The notes beneath the pieces are model-generated. The model was not told the origin of the DNA and searched no databases. It was given only the letters and a program-made list of their open reading frames with translations. A stretch of DNA of 64,000 nucleotides from Candidatus Hodarchaeota archaeon. GTDB lineage: Archaea; Asgardarchaeota; Lokiarchaeia; Sigyniarchaeales; SOKP01. This document shows, piece after piece, positions 44,795-58,839 of this stretch. Location of the stretch: positions 32,001-96,000 of the forward strand of contig JBHLKM010000007.1 of the NCBI GenBank assembly GCA_048886685.1, given 5' to 3'. The stretch's first letter is position 1; every line of letters begins with the position of its first letter. The position numbers and the translations under genes are program-made.

Positions 44795-45685
44795 CTAAAG
44801 ATTATACTTATTAATTTTGGTTTTACCTTTTTTATGGAGTTTTTTCTTATATTTTTCTAGATATTTTTTATTTAGAATATAATTTCTGTTAGCTAATAGT
44901 CGTAGTAAGGCATCAACAATAATTTTCTTACCATATTCATCTTCAAACATATTCAAGGTTAATTTAAGAAACTTTTTTGTATTTTTTAACTTTTGAAACG
45001 CTCTATCGCGAAATACATTATGTCGCACAGCAAATCCTCTTAATAATTCTACAAGAATATTTTTTGCATTTTGATCATAAAACCTAGCGATTTTATAATT
45101 GCCATAGGTTGTACACAGCAAATTCCAATTTGGGACATAAGCAAAATTTACATTTCGAATAAAAAAGGAGTTAAATCTTATTCTAAATAAGTTAGGCGAG
45201 AATCTATCAGAAAAAGAGAAATATAAAGCATAAGGTTGCGTAGTTTTGAATTTTTCTTCTTGGTATTTGATATTTACATAGTAAACCCTTCCTCTGTAAA
45301 GCTGATGTAACCGCATTTCAGCAGGAGAGATTTTTAGATTTTTAAGATGGTGAGGACTTTTCGGTGACCCAACACATTTCCCATGCCCATAAAAGACCCA
45401 TAACACGTATATTCCTCTATTATTATAATCCTTTGTTCTGGCGGTAAGCTCCCTTGAAGTTATTGGAGAATTCTGGATCTCTACTACTATTTCTTGCCCT
45501 GTGTTATATTTAAAATATATATCGGCTTGTCGAGTTCCAAAATATTTTTCTAACGAGGTTTCAATTATATTGGAATTACTTTCTAAAATTTTATTGTAAA
45601 ATAGATATTTTATTGCTTTATGGGCAAATGATTCTGATTTGGATTCTACTTTTGGTATGATATAATTAATAAATTTAGATTTCAT
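44795..45685 (-). CDS. CoiA-like PD-(D/E)xK nuclease
   Basis: ESFAHKAIK, EK...RQADI, VVEIQNS, RT..Y...GIYVLWVF. Confidence 0.75.
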   Translation of the reverse strand: MKSKFINYIIPKVESKSESFAHKAIKYLFYNKILESNSNIIETSLEKYFGTRQADIYFKYNTGQEIVVEIQNSPITSRELTARTKDYNNRGIYVLWVFYGHGKCVGSPKSPHHLKNLKISPAEMRLHQLYRGRVYYVNIKYQEEKFKTTQPYALYFSFSDRFSPNLFRIRFNSFFIRNVNFAYVPNWNLLCTTYGNYKIARFYDQNAKNILVELLRGFAVRHNVFRDRAFQKLKNTKKFLKLTLNMFEDEYGKKIIVDALLRLLANRNYILNKKYLEKYKKKLHKKGKTKINKYNL

Positions 45686-45889
45686 AATTTAGAATGTGTT
45701 AATTGATGAGATTTTTATAATCCCTTTTCTAATACAACTGAATTTAACGAGCATAAAGCAAATCAACGATATAAAGAAAGAGACAATGAAAAATTTGTAA
45801 ATTACTAATAAAAATTTAATCATAAAATCAGTTTTCTCTTTTTCTTTAAATATTTCGGAAAAATTATTATCATAAATTTAATATCAATA

Positions 45890-46600
45890 GTGAAAAATAT
45901 GGTAGATGTCCATAGTCAAAGTTTTTTTGGTCAAAGCACCGGAATGTTCATACAGAGTTCTTCGAAGAGTGAATCTTTTATATTCATGAAATTTATAAAA
46001 AAGAAAAATAATGGTACATGGGAAAAATTATCCAATGGAGAAGGAAAAACAATTAAATGTGGTTTGGAAGAAATAGTAATGATTCTTGAAGTCCTAAAGA
46101 AGAAGAGTAATTCATGGTCCACTGTACATAGTTTTAAAGACGAGAAAACTCAGATATCTCTTAACTGGGAGGGAGATAATAAACTATGGTTTAATGTGGG
46201 GGATTATCCCAAAATGTTAATTTTTACTCAAATAGAGATTTTGAGATTGTTATTAACTCATATCTTAGAGGAAAAAATTGAATTTTCAACCGTTCCAGAC
46301 ATAAGTAAATCGTTTGTAACTAATAATCCAAAAAAAGACAATAGTATCGTGGAACAAAATAATAAGAAAGATGATGGGTTAACTGTTCACGAGGAGATGA
46401 ATTTAGGAGCGAAAATAAGACAACTAAAGGGAAAAATTTTAGGTGAAACCGAAAAGGCTTTACGGGTGGCAATAAATAATGGAAGTGATATATGGATTCC
46501 TAAATCCACAATAAAATCTCAATATAATCCTGAAATAAACATAAAACAAACTTTCTTAATTGATTCGTGGTTTTTAGAAAAAAACAATCTTCAACTATAA
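45890..46600 (+). CDS. Hypothetical protein with a Whirly/PC4-like N-terminal domain and an ETEKA...WIPKS C-terminal domain
   Basis: Beta-beta-helix pattern FMKFIK...WEK...KTIKCGLEEIVMIL...WSTVHSF; low-complexity linker; C-terminal GETEKAL...WIPKSTI...WFLEK. Confidence 0.55.
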   Translation: MKNMVDVHSQSFFGQSTGMFIQSSSKSESFIFMKFIKKKNNGTWEKLSNGEGKTIKCGLEEIVMILEVLKKKSNSWSTVHSFKDEKTQISLNWEGDNKLWFNVGDYPKMLIFTQIEILRLLLTHILEEKIEFSTVPDISKSFVTNNPKKDNSIVEQNNKKDDGLTVHEEMNLGAKIRQLKGKILGETEKALRVAINNGSDIWIPKSTIKSQYNPEINIKQTFLIDSWFLEKNNLQL

Positions 46601-46605
46601 ATTTT

Positions 46606-46809
46606 TTAATCATCATGCTTAGAAACAAAATCCACAAATTCATAAAGCATGAGAGCTTGAAATATGGGATGTCTCTCTTTGAAAGGTATCTTTTCTACTC
46701 CAATATAAATATATTCTTCATTCTTTTGGCTGGAAATCTCAGAAAACGGTATGATTAAATCAGTTATACCTTGAGTTCTTCTATCGTTCGTTTCTAAAAC
46801 CGTTGATAT
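46606..46809 (-). CDS. Possible small protein (67 codons) without a canonical start
   Basis: Open frame ISTVLETNDRR...KHDD* directly after AAGGTGA (46816-46810), with a TATA-like TATAAATA near 46842-46835. Confidence 0.35.
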   Translation of the reverse strand: MSTVLETNDRRTQGITDLIIPFSEISSQKNEEYIYIGVEKIPFKERHPIFQALMLYEFVDFVSKHDD

Positions 46810-46952
46810 TCACCTTTTTAAAGAGTTTATTCTTATTTATAGTATTTAGTTTAGTCACAAATATTTAGTTTTACTTCGTATACTTCAAGCGAACTTCGAA
46901 TCAACGTAAAAGTTTCATCCTAAACGCTTAAGGATTGCTTTAAACAGTTAAT

Positions 46953-47201
46953 TTACTCATATACCGAAAATAATCGGTACCTACCAACAAAAATAGAAGG
47001 ATAGTTCAAATCTATAAAAGGAAGAAAGTGCCCCGTGCCAACCGACGCAATTTAGCGCCTAAAAATCAATAGGGTAAGATTATAGAGTGTAATGAATTAC
47101 ACTACCAAAAGACAAAAATCCAGGGTGTAAGCATGGGGCATAGTTTAATTTCATTGTATATAGTATAAGACAAAAAATTCCTGTCTTCTAGTAATGAGTA
47201 A
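46953..47201 (+). ncRNA. Candidate structured non-coding RNA (core 47028-47141)
   Basis: 11-bp helix GTGCCCCGTGC/GCATGGGGCAT (two G-U pairs on +), internal hairpins, outer stem TTACTCAT/ATGAGTAA; no ORF. Confidence 0.5.
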
Positions 47202-47530
47202 GATATTTGATAATTTAAATTTCACATTTTTTCTTTATAAACAATCAGTTTAATAATGGTTGAAAATGAGATTGAGATCGAAAGAAAGAAAATCACACTA
47301 GATCATATTATGAAGAAGCATAAAAAACAGTAGCGTCAGATAATATTGAGCAAGCAATTGATTTAACCGAAAAATTAAAGTAATAAAGTCTAAAAAGTTT
47401 CTAGACACCTTATATTTTTTTACTGAAAATAATTGTCATGAGAATTAGTTGATTTTAAAAAAATAGATTATGATTAAAATTTAGAAATTTATAAGATTTA
47501 AAAACAGTAAAAAAAGATGAGAGGAGTAAA

Positions 47531-48352
47531 ATGCAAACAAGGCAGAATTATCTCTTAACTTTAGTTTTAGGTATTATTATTGGTTTCATTTCGATTATAA
47601 TATTATATTTAATTAATTTAAATATTGTTAAAGAAACAATGGCTACTGTTGAGGGAGCTATCCCAGTTCTGACAGCATATATTATTAGAATCTCTATTCT
47701 GATGGGTATGTCTATTTATTTATTTATTAGATGGTTTATGCAAGAAAAAATGTATACTTCGGACCTTCCTTTCTTATTCGGGATGTTTTTTATCCTTTTG
47801 GTGTTCGGAAAATTATTAGATATGCTTTCAAATTTCATGTATCCTGTTGTAGCTCAGGACATTTTTTTGTTTTATCTTAAAATCCGTCAATTTGTAGTAA
47901 TCGCTACTTTGGCACCGATGGTATTCTTAAGTATCATGATGATTGTTATTTTTCTCCAAGCAAGTGGTAAGATTAAGAAATACAATGTCCCTCGAGAAAG
48001 AAACACTTTCTCACTAAAAATCTTGATAATAATAGCAATTATAGAAGCTATATTGATAATTATCACTCCCAATACAACTATTGCAGGGATAAATTTCGCT
48101 AATTTTGTGATATTTTCATTGTTAGTTATCACATGGATGTTTTATTTTTCTTATCGCAATAGAAGATTATCTCAAATACACCCATTAATTGTAGCCGTTG
48201 GATTTACAGTTTACTTGATATCTAATATACTAAGAGTTCTATTCCAGAATATAATCGGAGAAAATGCATTATTTATCGTTACAACTGAGGTTTTAGATAT
48301 AATTATATGTCTGGTTATTTTCATAGGCTATATCAAGAAAGCTAAATATTAA
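47531..48352 (+). CDS. Multi-pass (about 7-8 TM) membrane protein
   Basis: Alternating hydrophobic segments; GAGGAG RBS. Confidence 0.8.
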   Translation: MQTRQNYLLTLVLGIIIGFISIIILYLINLNIVKETMATVEGAIPVLTAYIIRISILMGMSIYLFIRWFMQEKMYTSDLPFLFGMFFILLVFGKLLDMLSNFMYPVVAQDIFLFYLKIRQFVVIATLAPMVFLSIMMIVIFLQASGKIKKYNVPRERNTFSLKILIIIAIIEAILIIITPNTTIAGINFANFVIFSLLVITWMFYFSYRNRRLSQIHPLIVAVGFTVYLISNILRVLFQNIIGENALFIVTTEVLDIIICLVIFIGYIKKAKY

Positions 48353-56961: not shown

Positions 56962-58839
56962 TTACGCTTTCTTTAATAGTAAAGGTGAAACTTCTTCAAT
57001 ATTATATTCATTATTCAGACTTATCAAGCTTTTTCTCTGACCATTAAGGATATCCCAGAAAAATTGTGGAACATCTTTTTCTTTTTTATACATGGATTCA
57101 ATGCGATCTAATTTTTCTAATATTTTTTTAGTACGAATAGAAAATTGTTTAATATAATCTGGTTCTGAATAATCTATAGCAAGGTATTGCTTAAATAAAG
57201 TTTTTAAATCTGTATATATAGGTATATAGCCAATAGGTGTCCTTATAGCCTCAAAATCATATTGAGATCGACCTTCTGCCCAGATTACCCAGCAAAGTTT
57301 ATCTAACATTCCATTTAAATACTTTCCATCTTTATCTTTAAGGAAGTAGTTAGTTGCAAACACTTTTGGGCAATTTTCTAGCATTTTACCAAAATCTAAA
57401 TGATTTTTGAGATATTTTCCCAAACTGACTACTATAAAATCTAAATTTGCGTTAGGCTGTTGTGTTCTTACACCTTCAGCACCTAATGTAGCTGAGGTTG
57501 TTTCTGATTCAATCGAGGCTCCCAAGAAAATTCCGTGTTCCCAATTTAGGCTTTCAATGATAGGAGGCATTGTGTCACTGTCCCGTCCACCATAGAATAT
57601 TCCAGATATAGGAACGCCATTTGGATTATGTAGATTTTCATCAGCATTACTTAATTCTTCAATCGCAATTGTATATCGAGCATTCGGATGTGCATGTGGA
57701 ATTTCTTTTCCATCAGTATCTTTTTTACCAATATACCAATCACCTGAAAAATTAAATCCCTTTGTAGGAACTTCTCTTCCATCACCAATCCAATAGGGTG
57801 TTCTCTCAGTTACTAAAACATTACTAAATATTGTCTCTCTAGGTGTTGTTATTGCTTCAAAAATAACAGGATCATCTTCTGGATTAACATCTTTTATTAT
57901 ACCAAAAATTCCTCTCTCAATATTGACAGCATGTGCATATCCATCATTCAAAACTCGCAAATAGGCAATATCATCACCCACTATAGTCTGACCAGGTAAC
58001 ATAGCTGTACTAGTCTTTCCACAAGCACTAGGGAAGGCGCCACAGAAATATGAAACTCTATTCTTTCCTTTCGGGTGTACGCCTAGAATAAAATAGTGTT
58101 CTGCTAACCAATCCTCATTATTGGATTTATAAATTGCTAATCTTAAAGCTAACTTTTTTAGTCCAAGACTGTTTCCCGCGTATTGATTATTAACAGATAA
58201 TACACGTCCTTCTTGTAGATCCACATAAATTCTTCTCTTACTCAGGTTTTTTGTTACTGGTGGATCTCCAATTAATTCTCCGGAGGAATGAATAAAATAG
58301 AAGAAATCTTCAGATCCGTTCAATTTTTTGAATTCTTCATAACCTGCTCTATAGAGGAGATCTTCTGAATGAGCTACGTAAAATGAATCTGTAAGCTGAA
58401 GGGCAAGGATTGAGAATTTTGAATTTTTAGGGCCTAAACAAAAAAATCGCACTACACATTCGTGACCTTCCATACATCCTTTCATAACTTCTAAAATTTC
58501 TTTGAGTCCCTCTTCTCTCTCAATAGTATTTATGGCAGGAGGGTGATATTGACCTTTAGGGATTAGTACTTTCGTATTTTTCTTGTCTCTTGCTTGATCA
58601 TGATTTGACATTGAAAAGAAACCATCAAAATGGATAGTATGACCATTTATCTCTAATTCTTCTTCTTCGCCAATTTCAATCGCTCTTTGTCTGCAATATG
58701 CAATATCATCAATTGAATCTGTTATTACTGTAACCTTAGAAGGTCTACACAATTCGACAAATTCATTTATGATCTTTATAACCTTTTCATTATTTAGTGC
58801 TTTTAATTTGTCAAAATTTTCTTTATCAATGATCTCCAT
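56962..58839 (-). CDS. pckG: Phosphoenolpyruvate carboxykinase (GTP)
   Basis: DQAR, YAGNSLGLKK, AFPSACGKTS, VGDDIA, HPNARY. Confidence 0.95.
   Translation of the reverse strand: MEIIDKENFDKLKALNNEKVIKIINEFVELCRPSKVTVITDSIDDIAYCRQRAIEIGEEEELEINGHTIHFDGFFSMSNHDQARDKKNTKVLIPKGQYHPPAINTIEREEGLKEILEVMKGCMEGHECVVRFFCLGPKNSKFSILALQLTDSFYVAHSEDLLYRAGYEEFKKLNGSEDFFYFIHSSGELIGDPPVTKNLSKRRIYVDLQEGRVLSVNNQYAGNSLGLKKLALRLAIYKSNNEDWLAEHYFILGVHPKGKNRVSYFCGAFPSACGKTSTAMLPGQTIVGDDIAYLRVLNDGYAHAVNIERGIFGIIKDVNPEDDPVIFEAITTPRETIFSNVLVTERTPYWIGDGREVPTKGFNFSGDWYIGKKDTDGKEIPHAHPNARYTIAIEELSNADENLHNPNGVPISGIFYGGRDSDTMPPIIESLNWEHGIFLGASIESETTSATLGAEGVRTQQPNANLDFIVVSLGKYLKNHLDFGKMLENCPKVFATNYFLKDKDGKYLNGMLDKLCWVIWAEGRSQYDFEAIRTPIGYIPIYTDLKTLFKQYLAIDYSEPDYIKQFSIRTKKILEKLDRIESMYKKEKDVPQFFWDILNGQRKSLISLNNEYNIEEVSPLLLKKA

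Follow-up and report, generated by a model that had tools for sequence, protein, structure and literature searches.

The gene pair analyzed here lies in a stretch of 64,000 nucleotides (nt) from a Candidatus Hodarchaeota archaeon (assembly GCA_048886685.1, contig JBHLKM010000007.1, positions 32,001-96,000), which we call the window and whose own numbering is used throughout. The two genes are divergent. Gene A, on the minus strand (44795-45685, stop codon at 44795-44797), encodes a predicted CoiA_nuc-type PD-(D/E)XK nuclease of 296 amino acids (aa). Gene B, on the plus strand (45899-46600), encodes a protein that comprises a Whirly-fold domain, a linker and a small beta barrel. Both are conserved across homologues. 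A first-pass annotation, made from the sequence alone, had described the pair as a CoiA-like nuclease and a Whirly/PC4-like protein that could form a DNA-uptake or recombination module. Its two open reading frames (ORFs) are correctly placed, and all the motifs it quoted from A, as well as the ETEKA and WIPKS motifs of B, are present and invariant or nearly so.

Protein A matches the Pfam family CoiA_nuc (PF06054) at an E-value (E) of 2.3e-12 and 47.8 bits, for a cut-off of 20.3, over profile positions 1-81 of 158 only. The sole other Pfam family at E<=1 is DUF6035 (E 3e-4). The motifs are ESFAH (E18-H22), ADI (A54-D55-I56), EIQNS (E69-S73), RTKDY (R83-Y87) and WVF (W96-F98), and residues E18, H22, K26, E46, D55, E69, Q71, S73, R83, Y87 and W96 are invariant in the 28 homologous sequences used to assess conservation. 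In the AlphaFold2 (AF2) model, which has a predicted local distance difference test (pLDDT) score of 86.7, helix 20-36, strands 40-49, 52-60 and 65-71, helix 77-89 and strand 92-99 form an alpha-beta-beta-beta-alpha-beta core. The invariant D55 stands on the second strand and the likewise invariant E69 and Q71 on the third, as in PD-(D/E)XK enzymes. The structural matches of the model are SfsA, NucS, Bax1, Hjc, Can2 and Card1. The core and a beta-rich extension occupy residues 18-204 (45074-45634, minus strand), which include the first eight invariant positions, from E18 to S73. They are followed by a helical domain with a pI of 10.3, modelled as winged-helix-like (residues 205-276; 44858-45073, minus), and by a lysine-rich basic tail in which 9 of 20 residues are lysine or arginine (residues 277-296; 44798-44857, minus).

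It has been reported that CoiA, which among bacteria is restricted to Bacillota, carries an N-terminal C2H2 zinc finger and an atypical PD-(D/E)XK site with the aspartate in beta2 and the glutamate in beta3. The enzyme cleaves at the junction of single strand and duplex and, with RadA, resolves the D-loop of transformation (PMC13663708). Protein A shares the homologous nuclease core and the same placement of the catalytic residues (D on beta2, E-x-Q on beta3). Unlike CoiA, it lacks the C2H2-type zinc finger: residues 1-17 contain neither Cys nor His, the entire protein has two Cys, and the nuclease helix starts at about residue 18. It also differs from CoiA in covering only half of the profile, in its winged-helix-like C-terminus and basic tail, and in being archaeal, with no visible link to competence. 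Hence, A is best described, on its sequence, as a predicted CoiA_nuc-domain nuclease whose catalytic site is intact and which, because the zinc finger is missing, is not an orthologue of CoiA. The CoiA-like reading of the first-pass annotation is retained for the core and the site. The family name itself is not new, as A carries a CoiA-family annotation in public metagenome-assembled genomes: a large-database search returned 64 relatives, every one from an Asgard-labelled source and many titled 'competence protein CoiA family'. A phmmer search of PDB sequences gave no match for A, and NCBIfam gave nothing useful for A or B.

The B reading frame opens with a GTG at 45890, 204 bp from A, or with an ATG at 45899, 213 bp from A. 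We consider the ATG the likely start, because homologues open with MVD.H.QSFFGQ and an identical database copy has 233 aa; residue numbers below follow the 236-aa form. No Pfam or NCBIfam family is found in B. A word-indexed database contains 676 relatives, which are all named hypothetical and have no Pfam domain; searching 1.84 billion representatives with a profile returned 581 at E<=0.001. Eight longer or fused representatives of the family (288-995 aa) were also devoid of Pfam domains. An alignment of 33 family members shows conservation up to about residue 135 and again from about residue 166 onward, with a variable linker in between. The AF2 model follows these limits, with a pLDDT of 75 overall, about 80-94 in the N-terminal domain and less than 50 for residues 137-173. 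That linker (46298-46408, plus strand) is acidic (pI 5.0) and predicted to be disordered, and its alignment columns are unconserved.

In the model, residues 9-134 run E-E-E-E-H-E-E-E-E-H with a long second helix, which bears out the repeated strand-strand-helix pattern noted earlier. Residues 4-136 (45899-46297, plus) are accordingly modelled as two antiparallel four-stranded sheets with a helix after each one, and this is the Whirly fold. Independently of the model, a feature search of the ESM Atlas places the N-terminal domain nearest to a Whirly-labelled cluster (0.92, 217 shared features), and among its ten best matches all ten, each bearing a family, agree on family or clan. The Whirly-like Atlas clusters near the domain are mostly of tailed-virus origin, and phage Whirly-fold models in BFVD also match B. 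At the level of sequence, the Whirly family PF08536 matches none of the 33 members at E<=10, a threshold at which HMMER filters may hide very weak matches, and it is equally missing from the single-protein scan. The family profile found no Whirly chain among PDB sequences. The KGKAAL motif, which is typical of plant Whirlies, occurs neither in B nor in the consensus of its family, whose invariant residues include E51-G52-K53 and K56. Altogether, the modelled fold of the N-terminal domain is Whirly, while membership of the Whirly family is not seen in the sequence.

Several known families deserve comparison. Plant Whirly proteins (WHY1/2/3, StWhy2, PBF-2/p24) share 8-12% identity with B, which differs from them in its added linker and C-terminal barrel, in being archaeal and in its confinement to one order in our sample. 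A review calls Whirly proteins plant-specific (PMC9070903), yet folds of the PC4-like and Whirly-like kinds have been described throughout life and also from phages (PMC7549692, PMC11077065). The match of B to the Pur-alpha/PC4-like superfamily, which includes the bacterial YdbC and SsgB, is clearly weaker than those to Whirly and MRP, and Pur repeats are arranged otherwise. Of the earlier Whirly/PC4-like assignment, the Whirly fold is upheld by the AF2 model, the Atlas and BFVD, but not by PF08536.

The C-terminal domain of B (residues 174-236; 46409-46597, plus) is modelled over residues 176-231 as a small barrel with a short helix. It is basic (pI 9.7) and carries the GETEKA...WIPKS signature (residues 185-206), in which T187, W202, P204, K205 and S206 are invariant. 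Its family matches are all weak. Pfam S1 is matched at E 0.014, and phmmer against PDB sequences returned only MTH11 (E 0.14); the family profile reached E 0.019 against MTH11 and E 0.43 against archaeal Rpp29 chains. RNase_P-MRP_p29 (PF01868) is matched weakly in 9 of the 33 members (best E 0.0022). All these Rpp29 and S1 matches lie under the curated cut-offs, and we regard the barrel as weakly Rpp29/S1/OB-like (OB, oligonucleotide/oligosaccharide-binding). PHROGs gave three weak matches of unknown function, all over this domain, which also resembles short viral proteins in the Atlas (0.79, to be taken as a lead only) and in BFVD.

The distribution of the domain is more informative than these matches. 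It stands alone in a 96-aa ORF of the window's own genome (L003:215-505, contig C38), and in other genomes it forms the C-terminus of a 948-aa UvrD/Rep-type helicase (UvrD-helicase E 1.8e-41; L018:4787-7633, minus) and opens a NERD protein of 403 aa at the N-terminal end (E 1.6e-6; L019:1946-3157, plus). There it also ends 295-aa proteins that have no Pfam domains (L020:3258-4145).

The spacer between the two genes (45686-45898) is AT-rich, and the composition of the locus resembles that of its surroundings. At 45839-45853, about 46 nt 5' of the B ATG on the plus strand, lies the motif TTTTTCTTTAAATAT, which is conserved in orthologous spacers and resembles a B recognition element (BRE) followed by a TATA box. 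Across A-B spacers the common form is TTTTTCTTTAAATA(T), about 50-75 nt 5' of B; among eight orthologous spacers, the core TTTTTCTTT occurs in six and TTTTTCTTTA in five. From the archaeal TATA consensus, we infer that this motif is the basal promoter of B itself. A promoter common to both genes is not demonstrated by it.

To place the pair in its phylogenetic context, 200 genomes drawn evenly across the Asgard phylum were surveyed. The B family occurs in all 39 genomes sampled from the window's family and in two of three from a sister family, and was not found in the other 25 families; in this sample it is confined to one order. Most genomes have 2-5 matches, counting forms with only the N-terminal or only the C-terminal domain. 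The A family is present in 30 of the 39 genomes of the window's family and, bar one weak match, was not found elsewhere in the survey. From the coordinate tables of both families, a top-tier A orthologue (E<1e-75) was identified in 28 genomes. Of these genomes, 19 carry a B gene no more than 4 kb from A on the same contig, and in every one of the 19 the two genes are divergent. The linkage across Asgard genomes on which the first-pass annotation depended is thus recurrent, but not universal (it fails in genomes G176 and G191, discussed below). Second-tier A paralogues, in turn, never share a contig with a full-length B match.

The most common arrangement is a gene of family F6, then A and B, a deacetylase (Hist_deacetyl), genes of families F3 and F5, and a GFO/IDH/MocA oxidoreductase. 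In the window and in G137, a genome of a different genus, B is instead followed by a gene for a 273-aa membrane protein, and unrelated genes lie beyond A. Given these two flanking contexts, the pair has been kept together through at least one relocation. The genes that flank it share no function with it. A DEDD exonuclease was not seen in the contexts scanned, where several small neighbours of 142-184 aa lack any Pfam match. The distance between A and B is about 150-250 bp in eight genomes, 0.6-1.3 kb in ten and 3.7 kb in one (G070). At least four of the ten wider spacers contain small inserted ORFs, and in G070 three inserted genes part A from B. Apart from these three, the inserted genes encode a 221-235-aa membrane-like protein in two genomes and are small ORFs elsewhere (L012:7081-7788, L016:7206-7871, L013:6860-10050, L011:6897-7271 and L015:6972-7280); the spacer seems to be open to insertions or to attract them. 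We also noted a degenerate A-family fragment in G170 (C53:52273-52434; profile positions 6-136, one in-frame TGA) and, at a distance of 4.7 kb on that contig, a B-family match with the C-terminal domain alone (57127-57504); the two may represent a decayed second copy of the pair. Some genomes lack both A and the linked B clade. We weighed this as a sign of coupling and discarded it, because a single deletion or assembly gap removes neighbours together.

Several paralogue groups appear in a quick maximum-likelihood tree of 79 full-length sequences of the B family. The 19 A-linked copies cluster in it (5 label changes vs 17.1 in shuffles), though they are not resolved as a single clade. A slow-evolving core clade, with a support of 100 in the Shimodaira-Hasegawa-like approximate likelihood-ratio test (SH-aLRT), holds the second copy of the window's genome (contig C10) and is never A-linked. 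Branch lengths are 0.2-0.6 in the linked clade vs 0.004-0.15 for most of the core clade. A third clade, B4 (SH-aLRT 95), is divergently paired with a gene of about 245 aa at eight of nine loci in three genera (L106-L112 and L122; for example, L106:2536-3294, minus, and 4069 onward, plus). This partner is an orthologue of RPA32/Rpa2: its family profile matches Pyrococcus abyssi RPA32 over the full length at E 3e-15, and Pfam identifies an OB fold and RPA_C in it. The remainder of the B4 context is of housekeeping type (NMD3, eIF2-beta, ArsA, and an M50 peptidase and a PP-loop ATPase that lie downstream). Protein A has no sequence relationship to archaeal RPA32/Rpa2, and a derivation of its winged helix from RPA32 was rejected (hhalign of the two families, probability 0.3). 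B differs from RPA32 in not being an OB-fold single-stranded DNA-binding protein. In the genus of G176 and G191, a further clade (7 sequences from 6 genomes, SH-aLRT 100) adjoins an aminoglycoside N-acetyltransferase-family gene, elsewhere in the genome.

Both B domains were also seen as separate genes in a putative virus (IMGVR_UViG_3300018080_000050; L026:5263-6897). A 139-aa stand-alone Whirly gene lies two genes after a gene for a zinc-finger protein of 307 aa with the C-terminal domain at its end. The contig has 35% GC and all of its genes are on the same strand. Among the neighbours are a thymidylate synthase, a weak PDDEXK_1 match, a PCNA-like protein, and AAA_5 and VWA proteins, and the block is by its gene content a putative replication and nucleotide metabolism module. 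A tblastn search of 50,697 phage records gave a single match for A (24% identity, E 7e-3) and none for B, and pattern scans of IMG/VR returned one contig each. In sequence, neither family appears typically viral. Altogether, B-family domains are repeatedly associated with proteins of DNA metabolism, namely RPA32, a UvrD-type helicase, a NERD protein and a viral replication module.

Downstream of B, the ORF-poor gap 46601-47530 contains an element of about 350 bp (47025-47374) that recurs at 85% identity in the same genome (G000:C24:16956-17324, minus), with shorter pieces on contigs C12 and C8. It starts at a GC-rich long-range stem, and the segment 46960-47160 folds with z-scores of -4.0 on the plus and -3.5 on the minus strand. 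Neither Rfam (gathering score over the whole window, E<=1 over 46550-47560) nor a tRNA scan gave anything real. The element is absent from the equivalent 200-bp spacer between B and the membrane protein gene in G137, and for this reason it has the appearance of a structured element that is repeated or mobile, and not of a partner of B. The tie once suggested between B and this structured region is unsupported, and nothing connects the pair with the 'scars' that it had been suggested to generate.

We tentatively favor, with slightly less than even confidence, the reading that B binds single-stranded DNA (ssDNA) and that the two proteins share recombination or repair intermediates as their substrates. 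A would be a structure-specific DNA endonuclease of the CoiA_nuc branch, built from the nuclease core, the winged helix and the basic tail. B would be a single-stranded nucleic-acid binder in which the Whirly domain is flexibly tethered to the small basic barrel, and the barrel may provide a second contact with nucleic acid or a module on which DNA enzymes dock. Like plant Whirly proteins, B could then coat or organize the ssDNA exposed in breaks, gaps or D-loops, and A could cleave the adjoining single-strand/duplex junction, as bacterial CoiA does, so that both would jointly process the intermediate. Phage two-component recombinases, such as lambda Exo/Beta, combine a PD-(D/E)XK exonuclease with a single-strand annealing protein. 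The likeness to our pair, a PD-(D/E)XK nuclease gene beside a gene for a single-strand binder or annealer, is one of analogy only. Unlike these recombinases, A and B have no homology to lambda Exo/YqaJ or to Red-beta/RecT/ERF/Rad52, are divergent instead of forming an operon, and are chromosomal instead of viral.

Several observations weigh against a joint role of A and B in DNA processing. In G176 (L022:5749-7925) and G191 (L024:4009-6152), A is the immediate neighbour of the deacetylase gene and the slot of B is empty, a B-family gene being present in another conserved context. Linkage on the same contig is missing in 9 of 28 genomes, which are these two and seven others, in which contig ends may account for the separation. 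Being divergent, the genes are not transcribed together, and a promoter motif of its own precedes B. Moreover, the sampled genomes belong to one family, so that the linkage counts overstate independence, and much of the linkage could be inherited synteny among kin. Most B paralogues adjoin no nuclease, and the core paralogue lies among housekeeping genes. Finally, the Whirly domain of B is near neutral (pI 7.8), the weak matches of the C-terminal domain are to RNA-binding barrels (Rpp29, S1), and Whirly-like folds bind RNA too, as in MRP1/2, Pur-alpha and the phage protein ChmC (PMC11077065).

These last points lead to an alternative in which B is an RNA-binding or RNA-annealing protein with an Rpp29/S1-like barrel, comparable to MRP1/2, Pur-alpha or jumbo-phage ChmC, and its adjacency to A reflects inherited gene order without shared function. 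We regard it as unlikely. The Rpp29 and S1 matches stay below threshold, and the rest of the context speaks for DNA throughout, namely RPA32, the fusions to a UvrD helicase and a NERD protein, and the replication module of the virus. Sequence similarity is absent between B and the trypanosome proteins MRP1 and MRP2, guide-RNA-binding RNA annealers of kinetoplastid mitochondria, and the RNA-like element next to B is not conserved with it. The long branches of the linked B clade, the several B paralogues per genome, the gene insertions between A and B in several genomes, the fusion of the C-terminal domain to UvrD-type and NERD proteins, both common in defence islands, and the viral origin of the nearest look-alikes of both B domains could instead indicate an antiviral or conflict module, with A as nuclease effector and B as sensor of single-stranded nucleic acid. 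Such a module is rather improbable: PADLOC at E<=1 has no family for A or for B, the flanks are housekeeping genes and not a defence island, the composition is like that of the surroundings, and the chromosomal position is stable across genera.

Whirly, PC4 and Pur-alpha were originally described as transcription factors (PMC7549692, PMC9070903), and a regulator divergent from its target is a common layout, here with an AT-rich spacer and a conserved motif. B might in that case be an ssDNA-binding transcription factor, like PBF-2/Whirly1, PC4 or Pur-alpha, that regulates gene A. This is improbable to a marked degree, as B paralogues occur in many contexts without A, A persists without a nearby B in some genomes, and the conserved motif resembles a basal BRE/TATA element and not an operator. 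The Pfam name and core homology of A recall CoiA, and competence regulons contain a dedicated single-stranded DNA-binding protein, which would fit the DNA-uptake part of the first-pass annotation, a natural-transformation module akin to streptococcal competence. We consider it very improbable and unsupported: the neighbourhoods examined contain no uptake-machinery genes, CoiA proper is reported to be restricted to Bacillota and acts with RadA (PMC13663708), and A lacks the zinc finger and matches only half of the profile.

A broader and rather doubtful proposal is that the B family constitutes a hitherto unrecognized, lineage-specific second ssDNA-handling system of Lokiarchaeia-type Asgard archaea. 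Its 2-5 Whirly-fold paralogues would operate with RPA32 and a CoiA-type junction nuclease through the docking barrel, and the family may have a common origin with the eukaryotic organelle Whirly and MRP proteins, either direct or by way of viruses. In its simple form, a 'eukaryotic signature protein' reading is disfavored, because all sampled members of the family come from one order and the proteins that most resemble it are viral.

The literature searched yielded no description of an Asgard Whirly-fold family. What is new here is the Whirly fold in a two-domain architecture, the lineage-specific expansion of this archaeal family, and a CoiA-type nuclease as its recurrent neighbour. Hundreds of sequence clusters that are everywhere called hypothetical have a Whirly fold modelled with high confidence, and two independent conserved pairings, with the CoiA-type nuclease and with RPA32, together with the fusions of the C-terminal domain, give them a testable place in DNA metabolism. 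If our reading is correct, a single-strand binder without an OB fold would be added to archaeal recombination and repair, and the CoiA-type junction nuclease would be extended beyond the competence of Bacillota. The B family would also offer a prokaryotic reference point for the origin of the eukaryotic Whirly and MRP proteins.
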